From Rickettsiales bacterium (GTDB lineage Bacteria > Pseudomonadota > Alphaproteobacteria > Rickettsiales > UBA998), in NCBI GenBank assembly GCA_028279475.1, contig JANQNR010000019.1, positions 6,044-70,043 of the forward strand: 64,000 nt of DNA. The letters run 5' to 3'. Within the stretch, counting starts at the first letter, position 1. Every line of letters begins with the position of its first letter. The notes under the pieces are model-generated. The model was not told the origin of the DNA. It saw only the letters and a list, made by a program, of their open reading frames with translations, and did no database searches. This document shows, one piece after another, positions 12,009 through 62,167 of the stretch. The position numbers and the translations under genes were made by a program.

Positions 12009-12042
12009 ACTATATGTCACTTATGTTACAGTTTTCTTACAG
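12009..12042 (-). promoter_or_regulatory. OmpR/PhoB-type direct-repeat box plus -10 element of virB2
   Basis: CTGTAAG-AAAA-CTGTAAC, 10 nt, TATAGT. Confidence 0.6.
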
Positions 12043-12179
12043 TCAGTGTAATTTTTGTCATTTTATTTTAAAAAAAGCGATTTTTTACTTATAAATTTTA
12101 GTAAAATTATTTGATTCATCAAGTATTGCAGGCTGATCACAAAAAGTGTCAAGTTGCCTAATTTATGGTAACTTTTATG

Positions 12180-13553
12180 TTATCTACGGACAACTAGTTG
12201 CGAAAACGCATCACTTACGGCTTTGGCGCCACGTTTATCAATGCCGCCAGGCGTATCGCGGAGATTACCAATGAACCGGCCTCCAAAGGCTCCAATGCCT
12301 TGTGTCAGGGCATTGCCTCCACCCCTCAATCCGGCATTTCCAAGTGCCGGCATGAGTCCACCACCGGCGACGAAGCGCGCGACTTCCGGCGCTGCTTTAA
12401 GGATGACTTCAACCAGATAGGCCATCACGGCTAGGATAATAATTTCCTGTCCTACCCAGTCGATAAAGGCACCCATACCACCCACTTGTACATTGGTTGG
12501 GGTAATTGGATCGCCGGTGCAGGTGTCTGCCTGCGTTGGGGAGCCAAGTGCAGCCGAGGCGCAGATGGTACACCAGTTGTTAAAGTCCAGCCGTTGTCCG
12601 TCATGGAACGCTACCCGATCATAGGGGCGTACCGTATCCATGGCGCCCTGTAATTTGGATTCGAAGGGTAGAGACAACACCACGGCGATAAAGCTGAAGA
12701 CGATAAAGATTTGCATGGCGAATCCTAATAAATAGGACAGCCATTTTTCAAAATAGCTGGTCGTAATGCGGAAGAAGGCAAAAGCCATAAATACTGGCGC
12801 CAATGTGGTAAGAAACATGATGCCGGTAATAGCCACCAGGTAGCCCAGTACGGTACGGATAAAGACCATAATAAGCTGGATCAGTAAGTAGAGCGCCATG
12901 GCGAAGATGGGTGGCATGGTAATGGCCAGTCCAAAAAGTAACGCTAGTATGTCGCTATCACAGGTTTGGTTGGTTTGCGCTGCATCTTGTGTTGTGAGGA
13001 AATTGTTTAGCTGTTGATCCATCCATACGAAAATTCCGTTCACAGAGCCTTGGTCAGGCGCTAAAACCCTGACAACTGTGTTGGTCGTATCGTACATAAA
13101 GCCAATCAAGCCCTGATACAGCAAATCAATCAACAGTTCTGGATACATGGCAAACCCGGAGACAATAGCAATTTTGGCCAGAATAATCATGATGTCGCGG
13201 GTCGTGAAGGGCAGCATGCCGAGTGCGAACATTGCTCCCATGGCAATGACAAAGAGCGTCATGGCGGCAAAGAATGGTTCCTGGAAATAGGTGAGCATGG
13301 CGAAATACATATTCGTCATCACCTGGTCGACAATTTCCTGATAGCTACAGACGAAACCGGAGAACATGTTGTCTAGTCCCGGTGCCTGACAATTACCGAT
13401 ATCGCCACTATAGAGCGTTTGTACTGCTCCGCCGCCGCCAACACTGCCCCCAACTCCACCACCGGCATAAGCGTTGGGTGCCAGAAGCATGCATGTCAGC
13501 GTCAGCATCCATAAAACGCGGGGTAAGAAAGAGTAGTAAAACCTTATGCTCAT
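12180..13553 (-). CDS. virB6: VirB6/TrbL family T4SS membrane protein
   Basis: Signal-like N-terminus; central hydrophobic VirB6 region (LAPVFMAFAFFRITTSYFEKWL..LLGFAMQ); next to virB2/virB4. Confidence 0.85.
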   Translation of the reverse strand: MSIRFYYSFLPRVLWMLTLTCMLLAPNAYAGGGVGGSVGGGGAVQTLYSGDIGNCQAPGLDNMFSGFVCSYQEIVDQVMTNMYFAMLTYFQEPFFAAMTLFVIAMGAMFALGMLPFTTRDIMIILAKIAIVSGFAMYPELLIDLLYQGLIGFMYDTTNTVVRVLAPDQGSVNGIFVWMDQQLNNFLTTQDAAQTNQTCDSDILALLFGLAITMPPIFAMALYLLIQLIMVFIRTVLGYLVAITGIMFLTTLAPVFMAFAFFRITTSYFEKWLSYLLGFAMQIFIVFSFIAVVLSLPFESKLQGAMDTVRPYDRVAFHDGQRLDFNNWCTICASAALGSPTQADTCTGDPITPTNVQVGGMGAFIDWVGQEIIILAVMAYLVEVILKAAPEVARFVAGGGLMPALGNAGLRGGGNALTQGIGAFGGRFIGNLRDTPGGIDKRGAKAVSDAFSQLVVRR

Positions 13554-13608
13554 CGGAAATGTTTGTCCATTACACATTGCATCACACTAAATTTTACTAC
13601 AGTTTTAT

Positions 13609-13623
13609 TTAAAAATCACTTAA
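13609..13623. promoter_or_regulatory. CtrA-type box upstream of virB6
   Basis: TTAA-AAATCAC-TTAA (TTAA-N7-TTAA). Confidence 0.5.
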
Positions 13624-13884
13624 TTTTTACTTGGAAGCGGAGAGGTGAGAGTGATGGCGTTGCTTCTTGCTGGACAATGGCTGGTAATTCTTTCATACTA
13701 CTTGCGTTATGAGTTTAGGCATCTGGCAATTATTACTGATTCTTCTGGTCGTGCTCTTGTTATTCGGGGCAGGGCGCTTGCCGCGTGTGATGGGCGACAT
13801 CGGCAAAGGGGTGCGTTCGTTAAAAGCCGGGCTGAAAGAGGAAGGCGAGTCCAAGCCGTCCCAGATTGATGATAAACGCGACGC

Positions 13885-14673
13885 CTAAATCGCAAACCAG
13901 ATTACTTGCCAGCTTTTAGGTGGGTTCAGTGCCGTAGCAATTCCTAAGAACAATACATAATGGACTGCATAGTAATAATGCGTGTTGCGTCCGGTATAGC
14001 GGATCAGGGGTGACAGTGCTGGGACATCAGAGTAGCGGGGATGAGTTTGGCGTTGGAAATGATGTAGCCCCCAGATGATTGGTATCATACCGATAGCCAT
14101 GACACCTCCCTGTACCGGTGTCATGCCGAAAGAGGCATGTTGTACGATCATGAACAGGATGGTAGCGACAATAAGCGTCACGGCACCAAGCCAGTGCCCC
14201 GGCAAGGCGCGGCGATAGAAGCCCGCCAGTGTAAACAGGAATACCTGGGTACCATATTCAAAAAATTTAAAGGTGAGCGGCAACAGTGCAAGACAACAGG
14301 CGGTAAACATGGCGACCATGAACAGATCCTTGTCATAGGACTCAATCCGGGTAATCAGCCAGCGAGCGATCAGGATGGTGACCAATATGTTGAGTGGGAA
14401 GATGGGGCTGACCAGTATCAGATCCGCAGCAATCATGAGGCCAGCCAGCCACCAGACGTCACGTGGAGTAGAAGAAGGACGGGCATAACCGGCCAGAAAA
14501 AACCAGATGGGTACGCACCAGCGCCCGATCACCCTCCACCAGAGATTATCTTCATCAAAGAAAAAACCAAGATGATCGATGGTCATCAAAGCCACTGCCA
14601 TAACTTTAAACAGGTCATGCTGCGTGACAGCCATCCCATATTTCAGGGCATTTTCTCGAATTGGGTTGCGCAT
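13885..14673 (-). CDS. traX: TraX-family membrane protein (pilin acetylase-like)
   Basis: DLFKVMAVALMTIDHLG, WRVIGR...PIWFFL.GY, LNILVT, EYG, YY.VH motifs. Confidence 0.72.
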   Translation of the reverse strand: MRNPIRENALKYGMAVTQHDLFKVMAVALMTIDHLGFFFDEDNLWWRVIGRWCVPIWFFLAGYARPSSTPRDVWWLAGLMIAADLILVSPIFPLNILVTILIARWLITRIESYDKDLFMVAMFTACCLALLPLTFKFFEYGTQVFLFTLAGFYRRALPGHWLGAVTLIVATILFMIVQHASFGMTPVQGGVMAIGMIPIIWGLHHFQRQTHPRYSDVPALSPLIRYTGRNTHYYYAVHYVLFLGIATALNPPKSWQVIWFAI

Positions 14674-14801
14674 AGACCATCTTTCACTTGAAACGCTTAA
14701 AAATGCGTTACTACTATAGGAGTATAAATATTACTAACAGCGTTTTGCACTGCCTTGGATTCCAAATAAAGTGCGGTGCTAACGCAAAAAGGGAGACTAT
14801 T

Positions 14802-14975
14802 ATGGGGTTTAAGGGGTTTGTTGGGCTGATTGTATTAGCGCTAATCATCATTTCCTATATGAACATCAAGAATCATAACCCGCTTAGCCGAGATCGCTAC
14901 GAGGAACGGCGAAGTGGTGATGGTATGATCGAGGATTATGGGAGTTATGGCGATCCGCAACGGCGAGAAAAATAG
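14802..14975 (+). CDS. Small single-TM hypothetical protein
   Basis: RBS GGGAG; 57 aa; N-terminal TM helix then charged tail. Confidence 0.55.
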   Translation: MGFKGFVGLIVLALIIISYMNIKNHNPLSRDRYEERRSGDGMIEDYGSYGDPQRREK

Positions 14976-14988
14976 CTGAACTAACTAC

Positions 14989-15387
14989 TTAGTCATCAAT
15001 ATCTTCATCCATGCCTTCAAACGACATGTGCTGCTCAAGATCCTCGCCCGCTTCAATCGGTTGTTCCTGTGCGTCTTTGAAGGCTTCATCCACATCGCCA
15101 CTGACGGCCGAAGCGGCAATGGCCTCGTCGCTGGCTTCTTCGGGAGCTACGGATTCTGACATTTTATAGGTGGAATAAGAGGCAACAACTTCCTGTTCAA
15201 TGGTTTCCAGTTCAATCGTCTGTTCTGCGATTTCCCGCAACGCAACCACGGCGTCCTTATCGTTGTCACGATCTAGTGTTAATGCCGCACCGGATGCAAT
15301 CTGCTTGCCCCGTTGAGCAGCTAATGCCACTAACTCAAAACGATTTGGAATGACTTCCACACAATCTTCAACCGTCACCCGCGCCAT
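14989..15387 (-). CDS. rpoZ: RNA polymerase omega subunit
   Basis: MARVTVEDC...[23 protein letters not shown]. Confidence 0.97.
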
Positions 15388-15487
15388 ATATTTTCTCTCA
15401 ATTTGTTGCTAATCCATGAAACAGACATTGCTTTATAGCGGTAATCGGCTACATTACAATAGAAAAAACAATGTATAGGATCAAGGG

Positions 15488-16417
15488 ATGACGGACATTG
15501 TGCCATTGATGGAACATAAAGCGGCGGATGCGCCGCGTTTGCCCAAGCCGGATTGGATTCGGGTTAAAGCGCCGGTATCACAGGAATACAAGAATACGCG
15601 TGACTTAATGCGCGAAAAACGCCTCAATACAGTGTGTGAGGAAGCAGCCTGCCCGAATATCGGTGAATGCTGGACGAAGAAACATGCGACCGTGATGATT
15701 CTGGGTAGCGTTTGTACCCGTGCTTGCGCGTTCTGCAATGTGCAGACTGGGCGTCCCGATCAGCTTGATCCACATGAACCGGACAATCTGGCAGAGGCCA
15801 CACGCGAATTGGGACTCAAGCATATGGTGATTACGTCGGTCGATCGAGATGATCTGCCGGACGGTGGCGCAGAACATTTTGCCCGCTGTATTCATAAGAT
15901 TCGCATGGCATCACCGGGTACGACGATTGAAATTCTTACCCCGGATTTTCTGCGTAAGGATGGCGCCATTGAAACTGTCGTAGCAGCTAAGCCGGACGTC
16001 TATAACCATAACGTGGAGACAGTGCCGCGCCTGTATAAATCCATTCGTCCGGGGGCGCGTTATTTTCATTCACTCAATCTGCTGAAGCGCGTGAAGGAAT
16101 TGGATCCGTCGATGTTCACCAAGTCCGGGCTAATGGTCGGCTTGGGCGAAACGAAAGACGAAGTGTTGCAGGTGATGGACGATATGCGTAGTGCCGATGT
16201 CGATTTCATCACCATTGGTCAGTATCTGCAACCCACGCCACGTCATGCGAAGGTCGAGCGTTATGTCACGCCCGACGAGTTCCGTTATTACAAGCGCATG
16301 GCGAAAGCGAAAGGTTTTCTGATGGTAGCTGCAAGTCCACTGACGCGTTCGTCCTACCATGCCGGTGATGATTTTGAGGCGATGCGCCGGGAGCGCGAGG
16401 CGCGGTTGGCCGGATAG
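15488..16417 (+). CDS. lipA: Lipoyl synthase
   Basis: [26 protein letters not shown]. Confidence 0.97.
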
Positions 16418-23541: not shown

Positions 23542-23576
23542 ATTTTATGGGATTGAGTGTGAAGCTTCTATGACAT
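23542..23576 (-). promoter_or_regulatory. PhoB/OmpR-type box plus -10
   Basis: ATGTCAT-AGAA-GCTTCAC, 11 nt, TAAAAT. Confidence 0.55.
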
Positions 23577-26398: not shown

Positions 26399-26524
26399 CG
26401 TAGTATTAGGCAAGTAAAAGTACTTTTATTACAGAATTATGAAAATAATGACTTAATATTAATAAAATATTATGATATATATGAGAATATGATATTAGAA
26501 AATTCTAACTAATGGGACGTGATT

Positions 26525-27277
26525 ATGACTGTTGATCCTATTCTACAAAGCGCTGCTCTAACGCTTGCCAATCCATCGGCAAGCCCTGAACAACGCAATG
26601 AAGCGCTGGCAGTGTTTGACGCACTCGGGCTCGATGGCTCCCAGTTTCCTATTGATAAGCTTTCACAGCTTGGTGTTGGTGATGTAAAAGGATTTGAAGG
26701 TGTACCAGGTGGTGAGGCGTTTCTCGAACAGGCTGGGCAAAGTGCAGCAATAAGCAATGATGCCTTCGCTCCGGCGTTGGATGCAGGCCAGCAGATGAAT
26801 GTAGCGATGGAAACCTCAGCGCATACTGGAAATGTGGATGCGAAGGACATTGACATGGCCAAACTGAAAATCGATCAGTTGGCGCATCAGATCATGGCTG
26901 AAAATCCTTCCATTTCTGCATCTGAGCTTCAAGCGAAAATGGCTGGACAGATTCCCAATGCCGGGAATATACCACAAAATGTGATTGCTGATTTGGTCGA
27001 AGATGCGCATTTGAAGAATCAAGACCCAATGGCGATGATGAACAACACCCCGGCGCAAGGTATGAGCACACAAAATGCTGCTGAAGAAGAAAAAGGTGGT
27101 CTGTTCGCTGGAATGAAAGAGATGCTGGCACCGATTATCGCCACACTAGGCACGGCGATGGCCGCCATTGGGTTTGGTGGTAAGCAGGGAGAGGAAGTGT
27201 CACTGGCTGCATTAGGTGATCTAAGTCCTCCACAAGTTGGTGGCAAATCCCGCGAACAGTCGATCGGCATTAGCTGA
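26525..27277 (+). CDS. Orphan acidic/Ala-rich protein with C-terminal hydrophobic helix; candidate effector
   Basis: 250-aa ORF after a very AT-rich intergenic region; tail LGDLSPPQVGGKSREQSIGIS. Confidence 0.75.
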   Translation: MTVDPILQSAALTLANPSASPEQRNEALAVFDALGLDGSQFPIDKLSQLGVGDVKGFEGVPGGEAFLEQAGQSAAISNDAFAPALDAGQQMNVAMETSAHTGNVDAKDIDMAKLKIDQLAHQIMAENPSISASELQAKMAGQIPNAGNIPQNVIADLVEDAHLKNQDPMAMMNNTPAQGMSTQNAAEEEKGGLFAGMKEMLAPIIATLGTAMAAIGFGGKQGEEVSLAALGDLSPPQVGGKSREQSIGIS

Positions 27278-34897: not shown

Positions 34898-34946
34898 ACA
34901 ACATCTCCTGACAATTTGATACTAGCAAAATTTGCTGTCGATCGGT

Positions 34947-38824: not shown

Positions 38825-38893
38825 ATCTTGTATTAGGCAGGCTTCTGGAACGGCAAAAAAAAACTCACTCAAACGCGATGGTTTCAGTGAGTC

Positions 38894-43813: not shown

Positions 43814-46141
43814 ATGGCAGAGACAATGCTGGATCACCCGAATGCATTGATGACCATCGGCATTTTGCTTGGTCTGGTGGTGATGGTGGCCAGCATTATT
43901 TTTTATGCTGTATACCGTATTGGTCGCCGTTGGGAGCATGTGGCGCGTACGCTGACCAGTGAGCTGATTGGCAAGGGGTGGGTATTTCTGGTCTGCCGCC
44001 CGAAGGACCAACGATTGCTCTATTGCCGAGGGGTGCGGCATTTTGCTTCATCCAGGCAGCCTTTTTCAAAATTGCAGGATGTGGAGAAGGGGGTGCACGA
44101 AGAGGACCGAGAGCGGTTTCAGCTATTAGTGGCCAATGAAGCCGAGCAGCAGGAAGCATCCGATATTATTCGCAATATTGAGAGTGAGCGGTTTGAATGT
44201 ATAGTGACGATGCTTCAGTGGCGAGGAGAGGAGGCCGTATTTATTACCCTGCGCCCTGTATCAAAGGCCTATCGGAAGATGCTGGCGGTACAGAGTGAGA
44301 ATAATGCACTGAAGGCACAAAACAGCCTGCATCTGGATATATTGAATACATTGCCGCATCCGATCTGGGTACGGGATGCGCAGCTGGCATTGATCTATTG
44401 TAACCTGGCCTATCTGGAGCTGGCGGAAGACAATGAAGCACCGTCGGCAGGGCAGGGGATGCCGGAACTTTACCGGAATGCGGAAGCGCAGGCACGCAAA
44501 GCGCAAGAGCAACAGGAGCCGGAGCAACAGCGACAGCGCCTGGTGGTTGATGGCGAGCGGCGGATGTTTGAGGTGCAGGACTACCCGTCTCCTTCCGGGC
44601 ATATCATCGGCATGGCGCAGGATATTGTGGCACTGGACAAGGCCGAGGCAGAGATTAAAGACCATCTGACGACATTGGAAGATTTGTTGGATAGCTCTTC
44701 CAGCGCCATGACCATTTACGGCGTCGATATGCGGTTGAAATATTATAATCAGGCCTATGTGCGTATCTGGGGCATCGATGAAGCACGTTTGCAGTCACAA
44801 CCGACTTTCTCTGAAATGCTCGAATATCTGCGTGAATTGCGCAAGCTGCCGGAACAGGTCAATTTCCCGGCATTCAAGCAGCAGCGTCTGAAAATCTTCA
44901 ACGAGGTGACGGAACCGCATGAAGAAATTTTCTACCTGCCGGATGGACGTATTTTGAGAAATGTGGCGATTCCTCATTCCGCTGGAGGCGTCTTATTCAT
45001 TTACGAAGACGTAACCGACCGGCTGGCGCTGGAGCGTTCCTATAATACCCTGATCGCCGTGCAGCAGGAAACATTAGACAATCTGTTCGAAGGGGTGGTC
45101 GTCTTCGGTGAAGATGGCCGTCTGCGGCTGAAAAATCCGGTATTCATGTCATTGTGGGAATTGAAAGAGGAAGAGCTGCCGGACGGGGTGCATATTTCCG
45201 AGATGCTGGAGCGTACGAAATCGCTCTACAATGTGCCGGACTGGGATGGTTTTAAGCGTGAATTCATTGCTCAGGTGCAGTCGCGTACCTATGAAACATC
45301 CCGGATAGAACGGCAGGACGGTGCGGTGCTGGATTGTTCGATGGTGCCGTTGCCGGATGGCGGGGTGCTGCTGACCTATGTGGATATGACCGCCTCGACG
45401 CTGGTTGAGCGCTCGCTGCGTGAACGCAATGAAGCGCTGGAGGCAGGCGATAAACTGAAAACCGAATTCCTGGCGAATATGTCCTATGAGTTGCGTTCGC
45501 CGCTGACCTCCATCAGTGGATTTGCCGAGATGCTCAAGCAGGATTATTTTGGCGGGCTGTCGGACAAGCAGCGCGAGTATGTGGAAGGGATTCACCATTC
45601 CTCGCAGAATCTGATGCACCTCATCAATGATATTCTCGATCTCTCCAGTATTGAAGCCGGCTACCTGACGCTCAATATCAGCGAGTTTGACATTTGCAAA
45701 ATGCTGCACGCGATGATGACGCTGCTGGGTGAGCGGTTACGCGAATATGATGTGCGTGCGGAAATTGTATGTCCTGAGACGATCGGCCTGATGCGCGCCG
45801 ATGAAACCCGGGTGCGGCAGGTGCTGTTTCATTTGCTGAGCAATGCGGTGAAATATTCGCATGAGGGCGGTAACGTTGTATTGGGAGCAGAGCGATCTAA
45901 GGAGGGCGTGACGCTCTGGGTCGAGGATAACGGGGTGGGGATCTCCGAAGATGAACAAGGCGCCGTGTTCGACAAATTTTACCGAGGTGCGCCGGGCGTG
46001 CGCAAGTCCGGCACCGGGCTGGGACTGTCGATGGTGAAAAACTTCGTCGAGCTTCATGGTGGCGAGGTCACGCTGGAATCCACGGTGGGCACAGGCACCA
46101 TCATTCGCTGTTTCTTCCCGAATGAGCCAAAACCGCATTAA
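43814..46141 (+). CDS. divL: DivL-like PAS pseudo-histidine kinase
   Basis: N-terminal TM, multiple PAS domains, H-box with Tyr replacing His (ANMSYELRSPL), HATPase boxes; follows ahcY as in other alphaproteobacteria. Confidence 0.85.
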   Translation: MAETMLDHPNALMTIGILLGLVVMVASIIFYAVYRIGRRWEHVARTLTSELIGKGWVFLVCRPKDQRLLYCRGVRHFASSRQPFSKLQDVEKGVHEEDRERFQLLVANEAEQQEASDIIRNIESERFECIVTMLQWRGEEAVFITLRPVSKAYRKMLAVQSENNALKAQNSLHLDILNTLPHPIWVRDAQLALIYCNLAYLELAEDNEAPSAGQGMPELYRNAEAQARKAQEQQEPEQQRQRLVVDGERRMFEVQDYPSPSGHIIGMAQDIVALDKAEAEIKDHLTTLEDLLDSSSSAMTIYGVDMRLKYYNQAYVRIWGIDEARLQSQPTFSEMLEYLRELRKLPEQVNFPAFKQQRLKIFNEVTEPHEEIFYLPDGRILRNVAIPHSAGGVLFIYEDVTDRLALERSYNTLIAVQQETLDNLFEGVVVFGEDGRLRLKNPVFMSLWELKEEELPDGVHISEMLERTKSLYNVPDWDGFKREFIAQVQSRTYETSRIERQDGAVLDCSMVPLPDGGVLLTYVDMTASTLVERSLRERNEALEAGDKLKTEFLANMSYELRSPLTSISGFAEMLKQDYFGGLSDKQREYVEGIHHSSQNLMHLINDILDLSSIEAGYLTLNISEFDICKMLHAMMTLLGERLREYDVRAEIVCPETIGLMRADETRVRQVLFHLLSNAVKYSHEGGNVVLGAERSKEGVTLWVEDNGVGISEDEQGAVFDKFYRGAPGVRKSGTGLGLSMVKNFVELHGGEVTLESTVGTGTIIRCFFPNEPKPH

Positions 46142-48711: not shown

Positions 48712-48784
48712 GGTTTTTCTCAATGGGGTAAATGTGAAGAGTTGATGACAGTGGTGGGTGGTTGTAGAATCGGGAATATGTAGA

Positions 48785-52724: not shown

Positions 52725-54272
52725 CTAGCGGCTTGCAGCAGTATCCTTTGCTTCCTGCTTTCCTTTTGTCTCCATCTTGCCGCGATGGTCAGAGCTTTTG
52801 ACCTTGGTATCGGGTGCATTTTCTTTGGGCGCATCTGCTTTCTTGTCGCGTGGGGTGATGTTGTTCTTTCCCTCTTTTTTGTCGGCAGCAGGAACGGTGG
52901 CTTTCTCAGGCGCACGATCTCCCGGCAATGCATGGCGCGCTTCTTGAATTGCTGTCTCCAGTGTTTCCGGATCACTAACGTCAAATCCATCGTGACTAAC
53001 AACCAGCCCTTCTCCCACCAACGTGATGAGTGACAAGGGGTGCAGCGTTACATTCGAACCATCTTTCCCTAAAATCGCCTGAGCGAGTGTTTCTGAGCGC
53101 TCGGCCAGCTCTTGCTCATATTCCTCACTGACTCCTTCAATATCTGGCGTTTCCCGATGATCGACTACATGCTGGTGGAAAATTTCCTGAATATAATCCG
53201 AAAGCTTCACCTTGTTCCCTTTGGCTGGGCAATGAAACTTGTGTTTCGGGTGCATTTTCTTGAGCTTTTCAATGCTGATGTCGTCGCCCAATTTACCTTT
53301 GCTCACTTCCTCCTGCAGGTGGATAATCAGATCATAGGCAATGACATCCGGCGAGCCATGCTCCTTGCTTTCCTCGGCCATTTTTTTGATTTGGCTGGTG
53401 CCGATCAGTCCTCCAATTAGCCAAGCATTAGTCGCATTTAGCTTATTGTCATAGACTGCGAATCTGTCATCTTCTTTTTTGCCAAAGATATTCTCTTTGC
53501 GTAGGCTCATCGCATCAGGAATAAAAATCTTCCCCTTGAGTGCCGTTTCAGCTTTATCATTGATGTTTTTCCGTTCTTTTGGATTTAGGTTTTCATTTTC
53601 AAGTCGGCTATCACGTTCTTCAATGATGCCTTGGGCACGATCCTCACGGAATGTGTCGCGCGCCTTTTTTTGTGCTCCGGCCATTCCCAACGAGCCGAGC
53701 ATATTAATCATCTTGTAGTTGAAAGGGGTTTGCAGGGTACCATCAAGCTTTTCAAGCACCTTGTTGTGATTCTTGCCGCCTGGAAGAACGCTGCTGCTTC
53801 TGAAATCAACGATATTATTTTGTATTAAAGGTGCAATCTCTTCTCTGATTGCTTCACGTAATTCTTTATCCTGAGAATGCGCTTTATTAAGTTCCCAGAC
53901 CGGCTGAGCTACAATAACAGCGGCTTGGGTTGTTAATGTAATGGCAGCTTTGGTTTTTGCTGCCTTATTATCGCTGAATAATGCATCAGTGAGCGATGCG
54001 CCTCCCTCTCCGGTAAAGTCAAGTTCCGATGGAATCTCTCCCATACGATGATCGACCAGGTTATGCCCGTGATTCTCAACAAACTCAGTGATAAGATACG
54101 CCATTTCACGTACAAACGTCCAGCCAGCATCTTCACCGAGCTTGTTGCCGCCGAGTTGCTTATAGAGTTTCTCCACCCAATTCCCATTGGCAATGTCCTT
54201 TGTGGGATCGATGCCATAGAAATCCGGGCGGGAATCTTTTGCCGTATTATATGCCTGACGTCTGTCTACCAT
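52725..54272 (-). CDS. Large orphan protein; candidate T4SS effector
   Basis: 515 aa, charged, no family recognised; tail PDTKVKSSDHRGKMETKGKQEAKDTAASR. Confidence 0.8.
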   Translation of the reverse strand: MVDRRQAYNTAKDSRPDFYGIDPTKDIANGNWVEKLYKQLGGNKLGEDAGWTFVREMAYLITEFVENHGHNLVDHRMGEIPSELDFTGEGGASLTDALFSDNKAAKTKAAITLTTQAAVIVAQPVWELNKAHSQDKELREAIREEIAPLIQNNIVDFRSSSVLPGGKNHNKVLEKLDGTLQTPFNYKMINMLGSLGMAGAQKKARDTFREDRAQGIIEERDSRLENENLNPKERKNINDKAETALKGKIFIPDAMSLRKENIFGKKEDDRFAVYDNKLNATNAWLIGGLIGTSQIKKMAEESKEHGSPDVIAYDLIIHLQEEVSKGKLGDDISIEKLKKMHPKHKFHCPAKGNKVKLSDYIQEIFHQHVVDHRETPDIEGVSEEYEQELAERSETLAQAILGKDGSNVTLHPLSLITLVGEGLVVSHDGFDVSDPETLETAIQEARHALPGDRAPEKATVPAADKKEGKNNITPRDKKADAPKENAPDTKVKSSDHRGKMETKGKQEAKDTAASR

Positions 54273-54298: not shown

Positions 54299-54332
54299 AG
54301 TTTAACTAACGATTGTGACATTTTCATGAATC
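54299..54332 (-). promoter_or_regulatory. PhoB/OmpR-type box plus -10
   Basis: GATTCAT-GAAA-ATGTCAC, 10 nt, TAAACT. Confidence 0.6.
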
Positions 54333-55878: not shown

Positions 55879-56613
55879 ATGTTTCGTAGTCTAGCCATTA
55901 CTATCTTGACCCTTTCCCTTGCCATGCCTGCTATCGCTGAGCCGGTACAGAAGGAAGAACTGGGTGATCTGATTCGTCAATATCTCAATGATAACCCGGA
56001 AGTGATTATGGAAGCGGTTGATCGCTATCAGCAAAAAGCCAAGGAAGCAGGGCTGGCCAAAGTACGTGAGGCCATTAAGGCTAATGCCGATGCGATTTTC
56101 AACGATCCGAATGACGGTACGATTGGTGATAAGGATGCAAAAGTTACGATTGTTGAGTTTTTTGATTATAACTGTTCGGCGTGCAAATATATGTTCAAGC
56201 CAATTGACACGTTGTATAAAGCTGGCCTGAAAGATGTGCGCGTGGTATTTAAGGAATATCCGATTTTCGGTGAACGCTCTGAAAAATTAGCCAAAATCGG
56301 ACTGGCGGTGAATGCACTTGCGCCTGAAAAATATTATGAGTTTCATGGCTTGATGATGCAGCATAAGGGGGCTATTACAGCAGAGGACGCTTATGGTTAT
56401 GCAGGTCAGGTCGGCGTAGAGCGTGAGGCGATTCAGAAAGAATTGAGCGATGCAAAATACACGCAAATGCTGAAAGACGGAGCAGCGCTTGGCGATAAAC
56501 TCCAGATTCGTGGTACGCCGTTCTTGATTGTTGGCAATGAACCTGTACCACATGCACTGGACAAAGCAGCACTGGATAACTACATCGCAAAAGCGCGGGC
56601 TGCGAAGCAATAG
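55879..56613 (+). CDS. DsbA/Com1-family thiol-disulfide oxidoreductase
   Basis: Signal peptide, YL..NPEV, EFFDYNCSACK, KEYPI, GTP. Confidence 0.9.
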   Translation: MFRSLAITILTLSLAMPAIAEPVQKEELGDLIRQYLNDNPEVIMEAVDRYQQKAKEAGLAKVREAIKANADAIFNDPNDGTIGDKDAKVTIVEFFDYNCSACKYMFKPIDTLYKAGLKDVRVVFKEYPIFGERSEKLAKIGLAVNALAPEKYYEFHGLMMQHKGAITAEDAYGYAGQVGVEREAIQKELSDAKYTQMLKDGAALGDKLQIRGTPFLIVGNEPVPHALDKAALDNYIAKARAAKQ

Positions 56614-56698
56614 GCAACTACCAGGCATGAAGAGGTGAAACTGCTATAAACACTTGCGCCTGTATGGCGTGTGTAATAGATAAGCACTTCCACATCGT

Positions 56699-56774
56699 GG
56701 GGCATTAGCTCAGCTGGTAGAGCGTTACACTGGCAGTGTAAAGGTCAGCGGTTCGACTCCGCTATGCTCCACCA
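56699..56774 (+). tRNA. tRNA-Ala(GGC)
   Basis: GGGGCAT/ATGCTCC acceptor with G3:U70, loop CTGGCAG, GTTCGAC, CCA; 76 nt. Confidence 0.96.
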
Positions 56775-56915
56775 TCTCAAACCGCACGTAATCTCCAGCA
56801 CACTATGCATTATGTCCGGATTTGATGCTGCTATCGTCCTGATTCTATTGATTGTCTAGTTTTTTATCAGCTTACCATTGAAAAGAACTTCTTCATGCTG
56901 ATATAACATGCCACT

Positions 56916-57092
56916 ATGAAGAGAGTTCCAGTAAATGACCATGCGAAGATCATTGATTTTCCGGCTAAACACCAGCAAAAATCGCAAGACCGTTATCCGG
57001 ATTTCCGGATTGAAAAAGATGAGTGGCTTGAATCTTTCAATTGCCTAGAGGATGATACAGATTTCTTGAAAGGAATGATTACGGCGTATTGA
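56916..57092 (+). CDS. Small hypothetical protein (58 aa, below the ORF-track cutoff)
   Basis: MKRVPVNDHAKIIDFP...FLKGMITAY; TTGAAA...TATAAC promoter-like sequence upstream. Confidence 0.4.
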   Translation: MKRVPVNDHAKIIDFPAKHQQKSQDRYPDFRIEKDEWLESFNCLEDDTDFLKGMITAY

Positions 57093-57129
57093 CCCCCCCC
57101 TTGTAAACAAACTCTACTTTCCCATTACA

Positions 57130-57450
57130 TTAGTGCTGCGTTCCTTCCTGATCCGCAAGCGCCAGTAATAATGCATGAATGTCGTCGCATTCAAATTTGC
57201 TGGCTAATTTAAAGAACGATAATAGCAGTGTCAGTTTTTCGAACAGATATTCATCATTAGCGACTTTACGTACAACACTGTTTGTACGTTCTGTGTCCGA
57301 ACTAATTTTGCTGATTGCTTCGTTCAGAACACATTGTACAGAAAGAAGTCTGGCTCTTTCTGCTTCTTTTTCCAGGTAATACAGACTACCCACAATGGAT
57401 TGCAGGTCACTATATCCCTCTTTCTGTATATTTCCTTTTTCAATTTGCAT
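57130..57450 (-). CDS. Hypothetical protein, second gene downstream of luxI
   Basis: RBS GAGG; overlaps the end of the upstream ORF; helical, motif LYYLEKEAERARL. Confidence 0.65.
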   Translation of the reverse strand: MQIEKGNIQKEGYSDLQSIVGSLYYLEKEAERARLLSVQCVLNEAISKISSDTERTNSVVRKVANDEYLFEKLTLLLSFFKLASKFECDDIHALLLALADQEGTQH

Positions 57451-57748
57451 AATGAGCCTCTCGTGCATATTTGGATAATTCCACCATATCTATAAAACCA
57501 TCATTGCTCAGCTTATGATCGAGTGTCTCTACAGTAATAATCTGCCCGTCAATGTTGACATGCATACGATCAAAATCATCAAGATTTACCCGCCCCCAGT
57601 CAAATATCTCGTTGAGATATTCCATTGCCGGTATTTTCAACGTCGAGGCATTATACAGTTGTGCTTGACTGTACAGTCTGAATCCTTCTTCAATAGCTCG
57701 AATACAGCTATCTGCAATGCCCTTATACTGTTGATTTTTTTCGTTCAT
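57440..57748 (-). CDS. Hypothetical protein, first gene downstream of luxI
   Basis: RBS GGAG inside the luxI 3' end; 102 aa. Confidence 0.65.
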   Translation of the reverse strand: MNEKNQQYKGIADSCIRAIEEGFRLYSQAQLYNASTLKIPAMEYLNEIFDWGRVNLDDFDRMHVNIDGQIITVETLDHKLSNDGFIDMVELSKYAREAHYAN

Positions 57749-58367
57749 AGATCGTATCTCCATAATTCATAATATTGTGATTTATCCCTGTCGCCTGTCG
57801 CACAAGCTGCCTGTTTTCTTCCGAAATGATCACATACCCGGCTCTAGCCACATGGCCTTCATCTGTCTTTTGTGGTTCACCCAGCCAAAAAGGTTTCCAA
57901 TTATTTTTATAGAAGAGCCCTTTCCAATATGCCGGATACATCAGCCCCACAATATGGGATATTCCATGTGCCAACCCATATTCCAGATATGCCAGTACTA
58001 GCTCGTTGGCAATGCGCTTTCTGGTCTGTGTATCTAATCTGTGGTCTATGCAGAAACGCGAACCCTCCATAACATAGGTACCGGTTGGCATGTCGCTATC
58101 AACAAATTCAGATAAGTTCTCAGTGAGCATGAAAGACCTATCTGTAGGGTACAAACGAGTCACCCCCCTAGCTTCAAGATTATGGTCTCGCCAGATTAGA
58201 TATGTGGAGGCTGGATTATCGTACTGGTCGTACTCCATTTCCTCATATTCCGGCACATCCCAACCCTGACGTTTTATGATGGCCTGGTATCGCAAGCGAT
58301 GTTGCGCTGCCAGTGCATTTCCGGCAAATAAATGATTTGTGGCAAGGGTTACACATTCGACTGTCAT
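57723..58367 (-). CDS. luxI: Acyl-homoserine lactone synthase (LuxI family)
   Basis: HRLRY..I..RQGW, MEYDQYD, RLYPT, ML, EGSRFCID. Confidence 0.92.
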   Translation of the reverse strand: MTVECVTLATNHLFAGNALAAQHRLRYQAIIKRQGWDVPEYEEMEYDQYDNPASTYLIWRDHNLEARGVTRLYPTDRSFMLTENLSEFVDSDMPTGTYVMEGSRFCIDHRLDTQTRKRIANELVLAYLEYGLAHGISHIVGLMYPAYWKGLFYKNNWKPFWLGEPQKTDEGHVARAGYVIISEENRQLVRQATGINHNIMNYGDTIYERKKSTV

Positions 58368-58415
58368 TTCCGTCTCCCATTTGATTTAGGGATAACAGGA
58401 AGGTGTCGTCGGTAA

Positions 58416-58435
58416 ACCTAGCCAACCGGATAGGG
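58416..58435. promoter_or_regulatory. lux box upstream of luxI
   Basis: ACCTAGCCAACCGGATAGGG: 20-bp imperfect palindrome matching NNCT-N12-AGNN. Confidence 0.75.
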
Positions 58436-58436
58436 T

Positions 58437-59189
58437 TTAGTCGAAAATAGTTCGTACACCGATGACATCGATAGGGATAAGTCCCAGGCGAATCGCCTTT
58501 GTCACGGCCAACACCCGGTCATTTGCATTAAGTTTGCGGTAGATGTTCTGTTGGTGGAACTTGATGGTTGCCGTCGAAACATGCAGAATGTCGGCAATTT
58601 CAGAATTATGTTTTCCGTTGGCCATCCATTTTAGTACTTCACTTTCCTTAGAAGTAAGGTGCACAGGCTCAGACACATAAGGCTTCTCCTGCACCAGGTC
58701 GCAATACACCGTATGAAATTGTTCCGTAAATAAATTAAGTTTTGAGAGCATATCTTTGGTCAGGGTAAATCGGCAATCGCTTGCAATGCCAACCCCTGCC
58801 ACTTCACCGACTCCCCTGTGAAGGGGAATTCCTACACCGTTTAAAAGCCCTGCATCCTCCGCTTCACGCATAAATCGGATTTGTTTTTTTCCGAGTGGTG
58901 TTGTCTCTTCCAGTGATTGCCAGCTAAACGCCGGCCCTGTCCTCATTCCTTTTTGTACTACAGGATCAATCTTGTGGTATTCCCGCTCAAAATAATGATT
59001 CATCCAGTCCTGTGGATAATTTGAACGCACCCCATGGCCGGCAGTTTGCCCAATGGAATGATGATCTGTCATGAAGGTGTATACAGCACTGTCAAAGCCA
59101 AGCTGGTTGATTGCCTTGACATACAGGGAGAAGGCTTGATCTGTAGTCACAGCTCGGTTTGTTTCTTCAATAAACTGTTCCAGATTCAT
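58437..59189 (-). CDS. luxR: LuxR-family AHL receptor
   Basis: NYPQDW..HY....Y..IDPV, FSW, GLLNG...P; HTH LT.KE.EVL.WMA.GK...EIA.IL.VS..TI.FH. Confidence 0.94.
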   Translation of the reverse strand: MNLEQFIEETNRAVTTDQAFSLYVKAINQLGFDSAVYTFMTDHHSIGQTAGHGVRSNYPQDWMNHYFEREYHKIDPVVQKGMRTGPAFSWQSLEETTPLGKKQIRFMREAEDAGLLNGVGIPLHRGVGEVAGVGIASDCRFTLTKDMLSKLNLFTEQFHTVYCDLVQEKPYVSEPVHLTSKESEVLKWMANGKHNSEIADILHVSTATIKFHQQNIYRKLNANDRVLAVTKAIRLGLIPIDVIGVRTIFD

Positions 59190-59523
59190 GTGTTCACTAC
59201 CCAACGTTAAAGGAATCAACTATAAAACCGTTATATTTTCAACCAGATATTGAATGAAAGCAAACAATATAATCCAGAAATTTTCCATGTATGACTTTTC
59301 TGATCCTCAAATGAGTGTTCGAAATTAAACTGCTATAGTGAGCGTCACTAGACGGAAGTATAGTCTATGGCGCTGTAAAGTCTGTTTGATATACTGTTGC
59401 CCCAATAAATCCGTGAGGATAGGGATTCGAACCTGCGAAGCAACACCAAAGGTGTTGTTCGCCTCTTTCATAGGGGGTTCGTTCAATCCCCTCGCGTACA
59501 GGTTTAAATATCATTCTATATAC

Positions 59524-59703
59524 TGGCGCAGCAACCGAGAGTACTTTCAAACCTGTTGAACGTTGAGGCAGATGCTGTTTTTGATTTGTCCTATCGCTAC
59601 GCTATTGAGGACATGGCGGAGCAATCGGGAGCATTTTCAAACCTATTGAACGTTGAGGTAGATGCTGTTTTTGATTTGTCCTATCGCTACGCTATTGAGG
59701 ACA
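59524..59703 (-). repeat. Two tandem 90-bp units downstream of tRNA-Ser, each ending in a tRNA-3'-like GCCA
   Basis: Units 59524-59613 and 59614-59703 are near-identical; plus-strand unit starts TGGCG(C/G)AG, like the tRNA end at 59704. Confidence 0.9.
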
Positions 59704-59793
59704 TGGCGGAGGGACAGGGATTCGAACCCTGGAAGGAGTTGCCCCCTTGCCGGTTTTCAAGACCGGTGCATTCAACCGCTCTGCCATCCCTCC
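59704..59793 (-). tRNA. tRNA-Ser(TGA)
   Basis: GGAGGGA/TCCCTCC acceptor, loop CTTGAAA, long variable arm, GTTCGAA, GCCA; 90 nt. Confidence 0.97.
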
Positions 59794-59905
59794 GAAACGC
59801 TGAACCAGCGAGCGCCTAACCTAGAAAATATCGTGGTCGCTTGTAAAGTGGAATTCTTGTTTTTCTTCATCCTATCTTAAACTATGGTCGATAGAGAGGT
59901 AGAGT

Positions 59906-61573
59906 ATGGATAATTTGCTAAGTTTATTAATGCGTGAGCTGGATGTCATCTGGGCGGCGCATCGGGCGGTGGGGCTGGAAGGTTCCATGTGCCTGTATAC
60001 GCTGGACGGGCAGGAACCATGGCGTTCGGACAAGCAGGGACTGACACGCTGGTTCACACATGAAGAGACCTCTGACGCCCTGACTGAACTGATTACGCAC
60101 TACAATGAAGGCAACCTGCCAAACTCCAGTATGTTGTTGAATCCGATCATCCATCATCAGGATGGGGAGGGCTACAAGCCGGTCGGCAGTGGAGTATTCT
60201 GGGCGACGGCCTTTGCGCTGGGGATCGCCGAACTAACACCGGATCAGATGCAACGGCCACTGGATAAGGGCGTCTTATGCAGTCATTTCCATCGGGGCGA
60301 TGATACGCAGGCCGGAATTAAACTGCTGGGAATTTCAGATAAGGTACTGGAACCGGAAGCTGACGGTATCAGTGTGAACGGATGTCGTGCGCTCTATGAT
60401 CTGACGGATGTAAAGAGTGAGCCCTATGCACCGTATTATCCTTTATCCGGCCTGAACTACCTGAGTCTGCACGGGATTTTTAATCATCCGGATATTACCC
60501 ATTCCTTCCCGGAGCCGTTGCAAGAAGCACCGGCGGAGCAGGTGGTCAAGGAAACACAGATCAATGTACAAACGGTGTTGGATGCCACGGAATGTTTCAT
60601 TGCCTATGACCGGTTGCATCGCCTCTATACCCATTTCGGACAAGATACGAAGGATATTCCCCACAATACGCGGTTTTTCAATCTCTGCGCCCGCGATCTT
60701 GACCTGTTCGACCGTACCGGGCCAATGCGGATCGGCTCGGATGAGACCTTTGAATTTATCGTGCCGGGCTATATCCCACGAGGTGCCGTGACACTACTGG
60801 CCGCTTCCGGGGGGACGGGGAAGAGTAGTGCTGCGCACCAACTCTGTGTACTGTCGGCCATTGATTATGAGGAAGGCGAAGAGCCGCCGACCTGGTTGGG
60901 GCAGCCGATCAATACCAACGTGACCAAAGGGGTCTGCGTCTATTTCTCCGGGGAGGATGGTCCGGCGATCATCAATGCGCGGGGTGAGTTGTTTGACCCG
61001 GAGGGGCGGGCGCAGCGCCTGCAATTCCACCGTACCGAGTTTGCCGATCAGGATATTAGTTTCGGTGAGTATCTGTTGCGCCTGCGCAAAATGCCGGACG
61101 TATCGCTGGTGGTGGTCGACCCGGCGCGGAAATATCTCAGCGGGGATGAGGACAATTCCGACGTGGTCAGTGAGTTCTTTGAAGCGATTGAGGAATTTGC
61201 GATTGAGAAGAATTGCGGCATGATTATCGTGCATCACTTGCAGAAAGGTGCGCGTCCGACCAATTCAAGGGAAGTGCTGGATGAGTTGCGCGGTTCGCAG
61301 GTGTTCATCGACCGGGCGCGGGTCGTGCTGGGGATGTGCCGCGATGAGAAACATACCATTATCGGCCTGTCGAAATGTAACATTCCGCCGAATCTGGGGA
61401 TGGTACAGGAAGAGCGGATTTTCACACGGAATCCGGAGAATTTGCAGTTGATCTGGTTGCCGGGCGAATCAGGGGTGCGGCGTGATTACCTGACGAAAGA
61501 AGAGATTGAGGCGCTGGAGTTCGAACAGTTTCAGGAACAATTGCAGCCGAAGAAAGAAGAAAAAAGTAAGTAG
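59906..61573 (+). CDS. RecA-superfamily ATPase (RepA helicase/AAA_25-like) with unknown N-terminal domain
   Basis: Walker A ASGGTGKS, YFSGED, Walker B VVVDP, IVHHLQK, LRGS. Confidence 0.8.
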   Translation: MDNLLSLLMRELDVIWAAHRAVGLEGSMCLYTLDGQEPWRSDKQGLTRWFTHEETSDALTELITHYNEGNLPNSSMLLNPIIHHQDGEGYKPVGSGVFWATAFALGIAELTPDQMQRPLDKGVLCSHFHRGDDTQAGIKLLGISDKVLEPEADGISVNGCRALYDLTDVKSEPYAPYYPLSGLNYLSLHGIFNHPDITHSFPEPLQEAPAEQVVKETQINVQTVLDATECFIAYDRLHRLYTHFGQDTKDIPHNTRFFNLCARDLDLFDRTGPMRIGSDETFEFIVPGYIPRGAVTLLAASGGTGKSSAAHQLCVLSAIDYEEGEEPPTWLGQPINTNVTKGVCVYFSGEDGPAIINARGELFDPEGRAQRLQFHRTEFADQDISFGEYLLRLRKMPDVSLVVVDPARKYLSGDEDNSDVVSEFFEAIEEFAIEKNCGMIIVHHLQKGARPTNSREVLDELRGSQVFIDRARVVLGMCRDEKHTIIGLSKCNIPPNLGMVQEERIFTRNPENLQLIWLPGESGVRRDYLTKEEIEALEFEQFQEQLQPKKEEKSK

Positions 61574-61602
61574 CCCAGAGCGCTGGGATCACTGTGCTGC
61601 AC

Positions 61603-61686
61603 TGTCATGCCGTCGAATGACGGCATCCGGCCAGACCCCGGCACCCGCTGCGCCAGCGCTAGCTCGGCGAGTTCGCCGGGGTGACA
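61603..61686. repeat. GTCA...TGAC palindromic element
   Basis: TGTCATGCCGTCGAATGACGGCATCCGGCCAGACCCCGG...CCGGGGTGACA. Confidence 0.8.
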
Positions 61687-61720
61687 AATCGTACGGTCTC
61701 ATTGAATATTGCTGTGGGTG

Positions 61721-62101
61721 CTACCCGATATACGCTTCCTGCCCCTGTGGTTGCTGGCGTCGCCCCTTCTCATAATCCTGCCATTTAGTGCTTTGTGGCA
61801 CTTGTGGTTCAGGTTTTTTATTACCAAACGCCATTTTACCAGCAATGGCGGTAGCCAGTGCGGTACCGGCAACGGCAGCAACCTTGGTTTTTGTGTCCAT
61901 ACCACCCCATACTTCCTGCACTTTAGATCCAGCATTTTTTGCTACATCTGTTGCTTTTCCAAAAATACCTTTATCTCCACCTGCCGGAATCTTAGTGCTT
62001 TCTAAAGTCACCGCTGGCACATCTACTGTAACTGGAGCCGGAACAATATCTGTGCTCCCTCGACCACTTCTAATCTCATCCATCCAACTAAACATTCCCA
62101 T
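61721..62101 (-). CDS. Orphan protein with hydrophobic helix; candidate effector
   Basis: MGMFSW start with RBS AGGA; tail STKWQDYEKGRRQQPQGQEAYIG. Confidence 0.7.
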   Translation of the reverse strand: MGMFSWMDEIRSGRGSTDIVPAPVTVDVPAVTLESTKIPAGGDKGIFGKATDVAKNAGSKVQEVWGGMDTKTKVAAVAGTALATAIAGKMAFGNKKPEPQVPQSTKWQDYEKGRRQQPQGQEAYIG

Positions 62102-62133
62102 AACAGTATCCTGCTTTCTTATCCTATCCTTAT

Positions 62134-62167
62134 AGTATGCCATGAAATCATGACAAATTCATGAAGG
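62134..62167 (-). promoter_or_regulatory. PhoB/OmpR-type box plus -10
   Basis: CCTTCAT-GAAT-TTGTCAT, 10 nt, CATACT. Confidence 0.6.

Follow-up and report, generated by a model that had tools for sequence, protein, structure and literature searches.

The 64,000-nucleotide stretch of DNA studied here (the window; G000:C7:6044-70043 in our numbering) comes from the genome of a Rickettsiales bacterium and carries virB2, the pilin gene of a type IV secretion system (T4SS). An initial annotation of the window, made from the sequence and its open reading frames (ORFs), proposed that virB2 and five scattered loci of unannotated proteins share one promoter box with the geometry of a Pho box, that a single regulator of the OmpR/PhoB family reads this box, and that the unannotated proteins are probably T4SS substrates. 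The locus therefore raises the question of whether such a regulon exists, how far it extends, which regulator controls it and what its targets do. We found that the regulon is real: an 18-bp Pho-box-type element heads about 50-135 transcription units, mostly orphans (genes for proteins of no known family), plus virB2.

The source genome (G000) comprises 1.98 Mb on 19 contigs, with 51% G+C and a completeness rated at 100%. Genes were called by our own codon scores; these calls are crude and assign 84% of the genome to coding sequence, so that all counts of intergenic sites and of targets given below are approximate. Comparisons within the family used 17 genomes from 14 other genera.

A Pho-box-type element recurs in intergenic DNA

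All seven 18-mers on which the initial annotation rested were located, each at the coordinates and on the strand it had given. For a non-circular test, we built a weight matrix from these seven sites and used it to search the 302,969 nt of intergenic sequence that lie outside the window. At a threshold of at least 16 bits we observed 30 matches, compared with 1.58 ± 1.34 in 100 dinucleotide shuffles (maximum 6), and at a threshold of at least 14 bits the corresponding values were 54 and 8.5. Thus, the motif taken from the window predicts real sites elsewhere, and it passed the comparison with shuffled DNA that had been named as a check on it. Over the whole genome, 22 intergenic and 0 coding matches scored at least 17 bits, and with a refined matrix 148 intergenic and 58 coding matches scored at least 13 bits. 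A simple pattern, TKTCAYNNNNNYKTMAY, occurred 65 times in this genome, compared with 6 times for its reversed control.

Refinement from the position frequencies of 66 and then 206 sites gave the motif T(G/T)TCAT-RAAA-nT(G/T)T(C/A)AY, followed by a weak A. The box therefore spans 18 bp and consists of two half-sites at an 11-bp period around an A-rich spacer. The Pho box consensus of Escherichia coli is CTGTCAT-N4-CTGTCAY, that is, two 7-bp direct repeats separated by a 4-bp A/T-rich spacer, and we take the refined motif to match it. The flanks of the aligned sites carried no information, which rules out a mobile repeat as the source of the box with the exception of one two-copy element (window 38808, C14:22142).

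The number of promoters in the regulon lies between about 50 and about 135 genome-wide, rather than the six loci first proposed. The lower estimate is the excess of matches to the first matrix at 14 bits or more plus the window's own sites. The upper estimate takes the 148 intergenic matches at 13 bits or more and subtracts the roughly 11 that the coding density would predict; it is inflated, since the matches counted include those used to train the refined matrix.

Counting over-represented heptamers upstream of genes failed to recover the box, which is too degenerate for this approach, and recovered TGCTATA instead, which looks like an extended −10, a common promoter core. Within 150 nt upstream of genes, no heptamer was more over-represented than TGCTATA (75 observed, 13.4 expected), which often occurred as ACTGCTATA; CCGGAATGACG-like words and G-rich GGGAGAG words were also enriched upstream of genes. 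The two copies of the element mentioned above, at 38808-38840 of the window (minus strand) and G000:C14:22142-22175 (plus strand), are near-identical, read TTGTCATGC(C/T)GTCTTCATGACGGCATCCGGCCAGAC and contain the hairpin ATGCCGTC...GACGGCAT. This element is probably a false positive of the box matrix.

The box is associated with promoters and biased in orientation

We examined the 94 intergenic matches scoring at least 15 bits, taking TANNNT as a proxy for the −10 hexamer. TANNNT started 10 nt (17%) or 11 nt (7%) after the box, and a second peak lay 21, 22 and 23 nt after it (9%, 16% and 7%, respectively), compared with 1-3% at other offsets and after coding matches. These peaks indicate two promoter classes one helical turn apart. 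A gene start within 200 nt was co-directional only for 40 of these matches, opposite only for 10, present on both sides for 23 and absent for 21. When all 148 intergenic matches of at least 13 bits were considered, 143 were followed by an ORF, with the start codon 20-100 nt downstream of the box in 101 of the 143. Pho boxes sit about 10 bp before the −10 hexamer and replace the −35 element. The initial annotation had assigned its sites to one shared box of this geometry, and the refined motif, the 11-bp period and the spacing to the −10 all agree with that assignment.

Sites in the window

For the sites in the window, scores were recalculated from a matrix whose 135 training sites all lie outside it, and the number of matches expected by chance was calculated over the window's approximately 11.5 kb of intergenic DNA. 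The boxes and the genes that follow them are listed here.

62150-62167, minus strand: box CCTTCAT-GAAT-TTGTCAT, 19.6 bits; CATACT follows after 10 nt
61721-62101, minus strand: orphan ORF of 126 aa downstream of box 62150, without Pfam family (searched as a 140-aa form)
26428-26445, minus strand: box TTTTCAT-AATT-CTGTAAT, 19.2 bits
54315-54332, minus strand: box GATTCAT-GAAA-ATGTCAC, 17.8 bits, upstream of a 515-aa orphan
54299-54304, minus strand: −10 hexamer TAAACT, 10 nt after box 54315-54332
52725-54272, minus strand: orphan target of 515 aa without Pfam family, upstream of gatB, a hisZ-like gene and purA
34947-34964, minus strand: box TTTTCAC-AGAA-ATGTAAC, 17.0 bits, second spacing class
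34919-34924, minus strand: −10 hexamer TAGTAT, 22 nt after box 34947-34964
34703-34897 and 34465-34716, minus strand: small ORFs of 64 and 83 aa downstream of box 34947, neither with a Pfam family
23559-23576, minus strand: box ATGTCAT-AGAA-GCTTCAC, 16.9 bits, 0.11 expected, upstream of a 317-aa orphan
22579-23523/23532, minus strand: orphan target of 317 aa without Pfam family
48734-48751, minus strand: additional box CTGTCAT-CAAC-TCTTCAC, 16.1 bits
48328-48840 (longest form), minus strand: orphan ORF downstream of box 48734, 117 aa from a TTG start, without Pfam family
30108-30125, plus strand: additional box GGTTCAT-GCAA-TTGTAAT, 15.4 bits
32231-32248, plus strand: doubtful site ATTTCAT-ACAA-TCGCCAC, 10.4 bits, 2.6 expected by chance in the window
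32317-32871, plus strand: orphan ORF of 184 aa after site 32231, without Pfam family

Five sites (62150, 26428, 54315, 34947 and 23559) are individually strong, each with at most 0.11 matches expected in the window. The −10 hexamers that had been assigned to the sites were found in their sequence contexts, and the one at 34947, which had been placed one turn further from its box, fits the second class seen genome-wide at offsets of 21-23 nt. The site proposed for ORF 32317 did not hold up: it scores at the level of chance and has no support from conservation. The copy at 26428, described as a reverse-oriented box before ORF 26525 (26519-27277), is a strong box that points away from this ORF. 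It faces the 3′ end of argG, and the sole ORF after it encodes 46 aa and lies 122 nt off. Box 26428 could drive a small or antisense RNA, or it could act on ORF 26519-27277 in reverse orientation.

Two further boxes, at 30108 and 48734, were missed by the initial annotation. Box 30108 precedes an orphan ORF (30189-30557, 122 aa), which is followed by pgpA and a 390-aa orphan. Divergent from the small ORFs driven by box 34947 is a gene for a Ros/MucR-family regulator (35105-35635, plus strand).

The virB2 promoter has kept the box across the family

The virB2 gene and its neighbors are arranged as follows.

12025-12042, minus strand: box CTGTAAG-AAAA-CTGTAAC, a TGTAA half-site variant, upstream of virB2
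12009-12014, minus strand: −10-like TATAGT, 10 nt after the virB2 box
11640-12020 (longest ORF), minus strand: virB2, TrbC/VirB2 pilin (PF04956, E=7e-18, match from residue 29)
9015-11414: VirB4 gene, flanking virB2
12180-13577: TrbL/VirB6 protein gene, flanking virB2

The virB2 box reached 14.0 bits when scored with the refined matrix and 11.7 bits when the training sites came only from outside the window. Because 1.5 such matches are expected in the window, it is not significant by itself. The spacing of its −10 agrees with the genome-wide peak at an offset of 10-11 nt. The real virB2 start is likely to be the ATG at 11939, which is preceded by GGAG and would give a protein of 99 aa, since the Pfam match and the relatives align only from residue 24-34 of the long ORF.

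Among the 15 family genomes with virB2, 13-14 have a virB2 promoter in which the two half-sites recur at the 11-bp period and a TAnnnT element, frequently with TG in front of it, lies about 10 nt further downstream. The box reads TTGTCATAAAACTGTCAC in G006 (23.6 bits), TTGTCACAAAACTGTAAC in G001, G005 and G015, and CTGTAAGAAAACTGTAAC in the present genome, and TGTCA and TGTAA also replace each other at orthologous virB2 positions in L007 and L009. This interchange indicates that TGTAA is a tolerated variant of the half-site and that virB2 belongs to the same class as the other boxes. No convincing box was found before virB2 of G012 or before the second virB2 copy of G013. We accepted the virB2 site, weak on its own, because it is conserved across the family. 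Across genera of the family, orthologous promoters have retained the element.

Most targets belong to no known family

Intergenic matches outside the window with an ORF of at least 100 aa within 130 nt yielded 80 candidate targets from the 148 matches. The 40 targets with the best box scores were scanned against Pfam (E≤0.001), together with 20 control genes of the same length range and without a box, drawn at random from the 1327 called genes. No Pfam family was found for 33 of the 40 targets, compared with 5 of the 20 controls (Fisher p=3e-5, odds ratio 14). Thus, some four-fifths of box-headed transcription units encode proteins of no known family. Among the T4SS genes, virB2 is the only one with a good box. 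Most of these orphans are not spurious ORFs: an independent gene call from codon usage recovered 36 of the 40 targets, among them 29 of the 33 orphans, and 21 of the orphans are at least 200 aa long. In the window, the six ORFs named at the outset have no Pfam family, compared with NCBIfam names for 19 of 20 box-less neighbors. The sharing of one box by virB2 and scattered unannotated genes, as first proposed, was borne out.

The targets with a family are a dicarboxylate symporter, a glucosaminidase, a glucosamine-6-phosphate-isomerase-like protein, a 1038-aa GT1 glycosyltransferase fused to a phosphatase domain, an MBL-fold hydrolase and an M24 peptidase of the methionine aminopeptidase type; the seventh non-orphan has one sub-threshold FliJ match. 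No phosphate-uptake gene was among the targets examined, as the initial annotation had remarked for its smaller set.

Target proteins are more hydrophilic than the proteome (median grand average of hydropathy −0.39 versus −0.18, p=3e-6) and less often carry an N-terminal hydrophobic stretch (8% versus 21%), and Q and P are 1.8-fold enriched in their last 30 residues. Paralogy among them is limited to 1 pair among 89. No homolog of the 317-aa or of the 184-aa window orphan was found in the 17 family genomes. Relatives of the 515-aa orphan occur at 30-33% identity in four genera (G013, G008, G010 and G014), and in all four a box of 16-20 bits lies 40-100 nt before the start. The regulatory link has therefore outlived most of the protein sequence. 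An AlphaFold2 model of this orphan from a five-sequence alignment (mean predicted local distance difference test score 44.6, predicted template-modeling score 0.34) was too poor for a fold search, and an ESM Atlas look-up of the protein gave no usable match.

Candidate regulators

Five proteins with an OmpR-type DNA-binding domain are encoded in the genome. Three of them are listed below; the remaining two are CtrA and an odd protein of 189 aa.

G000:C11:535172-535876: PhoB ortholog (NCBIfam PhoB equivalog, 340 bits versus a cut-off of 296)
G000:C11:145135-145833: OmpR-like protein, with a kinase gene downstream
G000:C14:4463-5143: CopR/CztR-like protein with an OmpR-type domain

The best solved relatives of the DNA-binding domain of the PhoB ortholog are structures of E. 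coli PhoB (1GXP, which is DNA-bound, 1QQI and 3T72; E about 1e-27, compared with 1e-20 for the next family). The recognition helix of this ortholog, RTVDVHIRRLRKAL, matches that of E. coli PhoB (1GXP_A) residue for residue, whereas the helices of the other four proteins differ from it, with RSADVLITRLRKKI in the OmpR-like and TNLIDVHISRLRRKI in the CopR-like protein. The identical helix together with the identical box makes PhoB the natural candidate for the binder, which would agree with the OmpR/PhoB-family regulator originally postulated. No regulator resembled VirG closely, the best match to the VirG model being 133 bits, far below the cut-off of 344. CtrA was rejected as the binder because its helix differs and because the CtrA box, TTAA-N7-TTAAC, is unlike the element found here.

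The best match to a PhoR-like kinase scored 294 bits, below the 334 cut-off. In the window, a 775-aa sensor histidine kinase (43814-46141, plus strand) has PnpS and PhoR as its best NCBIfam matches, both far below their cut-offs, and no regulator gene is adjacent to it.

Spread of the box across the order

We applied the simple pattern to 61 genomes of the order and called a genome enriched if the pattern occurred at least 3-fold over the reversed control and at least 40 times; these thresholds were chosen after the table of counts had been seen. By this measure, 21 of the 61 genomes, from many families, were enriched (for example, 109 versus 6, 79 versus 7 and 54 versus 2). PhoB scored above its curated cut-off in 19 of the 21 enriched and 15 of the 40 non-enriched genomes (Fisher p about 1e-4, a value that overstates the case because related genomes are not independent). 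The OmpR-like protein was found in 19 of the 21 enriched and 28 of the 40 non-enriched genomes. VirB10 was present in 59 of the 61 and therefore could not discriminate between the two groups. Two enriched genomes lacked PhoB. One of them, G074, is 81% complete and encodes a protein with a near-PhoB helix (RTIDVHINRLR); the other, G031, is considered below.

Type IV secretion genes of the genome

The T4SS genes of the window are virB2, virB4 and the virB6-like gene, plus a TraX gene. Those found elsewhere in the genome include two clusters.

G000:C12:10392-17370: second T4SS cluster, with a 102-aa ORF, a second virB4 (32% identity to that of the window) and three virB6-like ORFs
Contig C10: five-gene cluster that ends with VirB10, a 327-aa ORF and VirD4

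In the C10 cluster, read as virB8-B9-B10-B11-virD4, VirB10 and VirD4 were identified and the names of the flanking genes were inferred from gene order. A marginal box, TTTACATAAAATTTTACT (13.9 bits), lies 84 nt upstream of the first ORF of the C12 cluster, a set of virB3, virB4 and virB6 genes. The scattered vir genes, the duplication of virB4 and virB6 and the presence of a virB8-B9-B10-B11-virD4 operon identify the system as rvh-like. Such a scattered, duplicated layout is typical of Rickettsiales. More VirD4/TraG-like genes were seen on C14, C3 and C15.

A probable PhoB regulon and its alternatives

As a whole, these observations are best explained by a Pho-box-type activator site that is read by a regulator of the OmpR/PhoB family, most likely the PhoB ortholog. 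The Pho-box-type site would take the place of the −35 hexamer, and a phosphorylated dimer of the response regulator would bind it head-to-tail. The bound dimer would then recruit RNA polymerase to the −10, often TGn-extended, located 10-11 nt downstream or one turn further. From the helix and the box we infer with fair confidence that PhoB itself binds and activates from the −35 position, in which case the signal would be phosphate limitation or another input through PhoR. Beyond this, it is conceivable, and we suggest it tentatively, that PhoB was freed from phosphate uptake and became the master switch of a host-interaction programme, comprising the T4SS pilin and a large set of fast-evolving secreted effectors, in a broad T4SS-bearing clade of uncultured Rickettsiales-like alphaproteobacteria. 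Many targets may plausibly act on the host, some of them as substrates of the rvh-like T4SS; in favor of this, the proteins are hydrophilic, have few N-terminal hydrophobic segments and Q/P-rich tails, are unrelated to one another and turn over fast.

A number of results weigh against one or the other part of this explanation, in addition to the inflated upper estimate and the crude gene calls mentioned above. The canonical Pho genes lack the box, with best upstream scores of 5.4 bits for pstC, 3.1 for the pstS-like gene, 6.4 for phoB and 1.8 for the gene of the phoR-like kinase; the pstS and phoB promoters, with which the initial annotation had wished the box to be compared, thus reach at most 6.4 bits. 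No PhoU (PF01895) was found in the genome, the completeness of which is rated at 100%. Consequently PhoB, if it is the regulator, no longer looks like a regulator of phosphate uptake. Fifteen of the 34 genomes with PhoB are not enriched for the box. G031, which is 99% complete, is enriched (50 versus 9), and no PhoB ortholog was found in it, its best matches being an OmpR-like protein and CtrA; in G031, a different regulator reads the box unless the assembly missed PhoB. As regards effectors, the virB8-virD4 operon and the virB6 gene of the window have no box (best upstream scores 6.3 and 8.0 bits, respectively). A position-by-position search of the last 15 residues of the 80 targets and 1496 other proteins found no C-terminal secretion motif, only modest enrichments (terminal G in 16 of 80 versus 8%; Q at −8 and −11), and the net charge of the last 25 residues of targets was no different from that of other proteins. 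The Pfam scan of the 40 targets found no eukaryote-like domain, and none of the three ankyrin-repeat genes of the genome, taken as presumptive effector genes, has an upstream box of at least 9 bits.

Some of these results would suit a regulon in which the same box is bound by another OmpR-family protein, the OmpR-like or the CopR/CztR-like one, and PhoB has a small regulon or none. The box-less Pho genes, the G031 genome with its OmpR-like ortholog, and the occurrence of an OmpR-like protein in nearly all enriched genomes speak for such a binder. We nevertheless regard it as unlikely, since the OmpR-like protein is also found in most non-enriched genomes and so discriminates worse than PhoB, since the recognition helices of both candidates differ while that of the PhoB ortholog is exactly the E. 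coli one, and since the box equals the E. coli Pho box consensus. Far less credible are the readings that AT-rich promoter DNA resembles the box by chance or that the element is the −35 of an alternative sigma factor. Of the seven sites, two (virB2 and 32231) are indeed at chance level when taken alone, and intergenic DNA is somewhat AT-richer (55% A+T), but neither the shuffled sequences nor the reversed control came near the observed counts. Half-sites that share one consensus at an 11-bp period are moreover the signature of a tandem winged-helix dimer and not of a sigma −35, and the box is conserved at orthologous promoters while the flanks diverge.

A serious rival, with a probability somewhat short of even, accepts the box and concerns the targets: they would form an ordinary, large phosphate-starvation or stress stimulon of lineage-specific proteins that serve the cell's own physiology (envelope, lipid remodeling, scavenging, storage); virB2 would belong to it incidentally, and the T4SS would not secrete the orphans. 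The few annotated targets that fit metabolism or the envelope (the GT1-phosphatase fusion, the MBL-fold hydrolase, the glucosaminidase, the dicarboxylate symporter, and pgpA in a box-headed operon) are in keeping with it, as are the box-less main T4SS operon and the failure to find a secretion-like motif or charge at the C-terminus. It accounts less well for the 33 of 40 targets without any known domain, for their hydrophilicity, their scarcity of N-terminal hydrophobic stretches and their Q/P-rich tails, and for targets that are mutually unrelated and turn over between genera. The retention of the box at the pilin promoter across the family and the position of the phosphate transport genes outside the regulon also argue against this stimulon.

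Other features of the window and genome

The phosphate transport genes of the genome and two further genes of the window are located as follows.

G000:C2:52268-55707: pstC, pstA and pstB
G000:C11:509445-510443: the only PstS-like gene
32972-34468, plus strand: Terminase_6C, large-subunit-like (E=9e-20), directly after the 184-aa orphan and among housekeeping genes
58437-59219, minus strand: LuxR/TraR-type autoinducer-binding regulator, in a low-G+C stretch
59906-61573, plus strand: AAA_25 ATPase, in the same low-G+C stretch

The best box of the whole genome (C2:56443-56460, 23.5 bits) was found in the region C2:52268-56972, after pstB and a 75-aa ORF and before a 157-aa orphan, which occupies the usual place of phoU. 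The terminase-like gene may be what is left of a gene-transfer agent or a prophage. The low-G+C stretch (56000-60000, 43-46% versus 51% for the genome) contains several small ORFs and is possibly an island or the remnant of a mobile element.

The named genes of the window are housekeeping genes of alphaproteobacterial flavor, among them nhaA, mutY, comEC, lipA, lepB, rnc, era, argG, coaD, dusB, gatB, purA and ahcY, as well as a gyrB/parE-type topoisomerase gene. The closest public relatives of VirB4 are in metagenome-assembled genomes labeled 'uncultured Alphaproteobacteria' (65% identity) and 'Rickettsiales bacterium' (44%), and a megablast search of positions 9000-16000 of the window against complete E. 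coli genomes gave zero matches. Among sequencing runs, the sequence was traced to a single DNA run, possibly the source of the assembly, and to no RNA run.

Comparison with known regulons

The box shares its half-site, its 11-bp period, its A-rich spacer and its distance to the −10 with the Pho boxes of the PhoB regulons of E. coli, Sinorhizobium and Caulobacter, and the recognition helix of the PhoB ortholog is identical to that of E. coli. The regulon differs from a classical Pho regulon in that pstS, pstCAB and phoB have no box and PhoU was not found, in that it comprises 50-135 promoters in a 2-Mb genome, mostly of genes without a family plus the T4SS pilin gene, and in its second class of promoters, in which the box lies one helical turn further upstream. 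We consider this a case of a well-known box and a well-known probable regulator put to use in a rewired regulon of an unfamiliar kind.

In Coxiella, the OmpR-family regulator PmrA co-controls Icm/Dot type IVB secretion and effector genes. Passages of PMC3814349 describe the same kind of co-control of Icm/Dot genes and effector genes by PmrA and CpxR, both of the OmpR family, in Legionella. The PmrA regulons led to the discovery of effectors, and the PmrA box was used as a predictor (PMC2701608, PMC3814349). The regulon described here resembles the PmrA regulons of Legionella and Coxiella in having a tandem-repeat box for an OmpR-family regulator next to the −10 of secretion genes and of scattered, fast-evolving unannotated genes. 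It differs from them in the regulator (probably PhoB), the box (TGTCA-type), the secretion system (rvh-like, type IVA) and the organisms (alphaproteobacteria); moreover, virB2 alone among the machinery genes has a good box, and the targets are candidate substrates.

Agrobacterium controls its vir regulon by VirA/VirG through the vir box, and phosphate starvation controls virG. The present case is similar to VirG in that a regulator of the OmpR family would stand over a VirB-type T4SS with a link to phosphate limitation. However, the vir box has a different sequence, and the virB genes are scattered here rather than joined in one vir operon. In enterohaemorrhagic E. coli, PhoB activates virulence genes (PMC3978041). 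The two cases are alike in that PhoB and Pho boxes serve, or here may serve, host-interaction genes and not phosphate uptake alone. In enterohaemorrhagic E. coli, however, this is an addition to an intact Pho regulon, whereas the present genome appears to have lost the classical regulon and orphans dominate.

According to the S4TE paper of 2013, type IV effectors of alphaproteobacteria had until then no described cis-regulatory sequence (PMC3814349). Searches of open-access full texts and bioRxiv found no literature combining virB2 with 'Pho box' and no description of a PhoB-type effector regulon in Rickettsiales-like bacteria.

In uncultured intracellular alphaproteobacteria, effectors can hardly be recognized at all, because they lack known domains and the organisms are genetically untestable. 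The box yields a testable list of candidates, about 50-135 genes here and similar numbers in about one third of the sampled order, and it names a likely regulator with a well-studied counterpart in E. coli. It also illustrates how extensively a housekeeping two-component system may be rewired. Whether or not its targets are effectors, a regulon of PhoB without pst genes and consisting mostly of orphans is unusual. If PhoB does act as a host-interaction switch, the Pho box could list effector candidates directly from the metagenome-assembled genomes of unculturable organisms.

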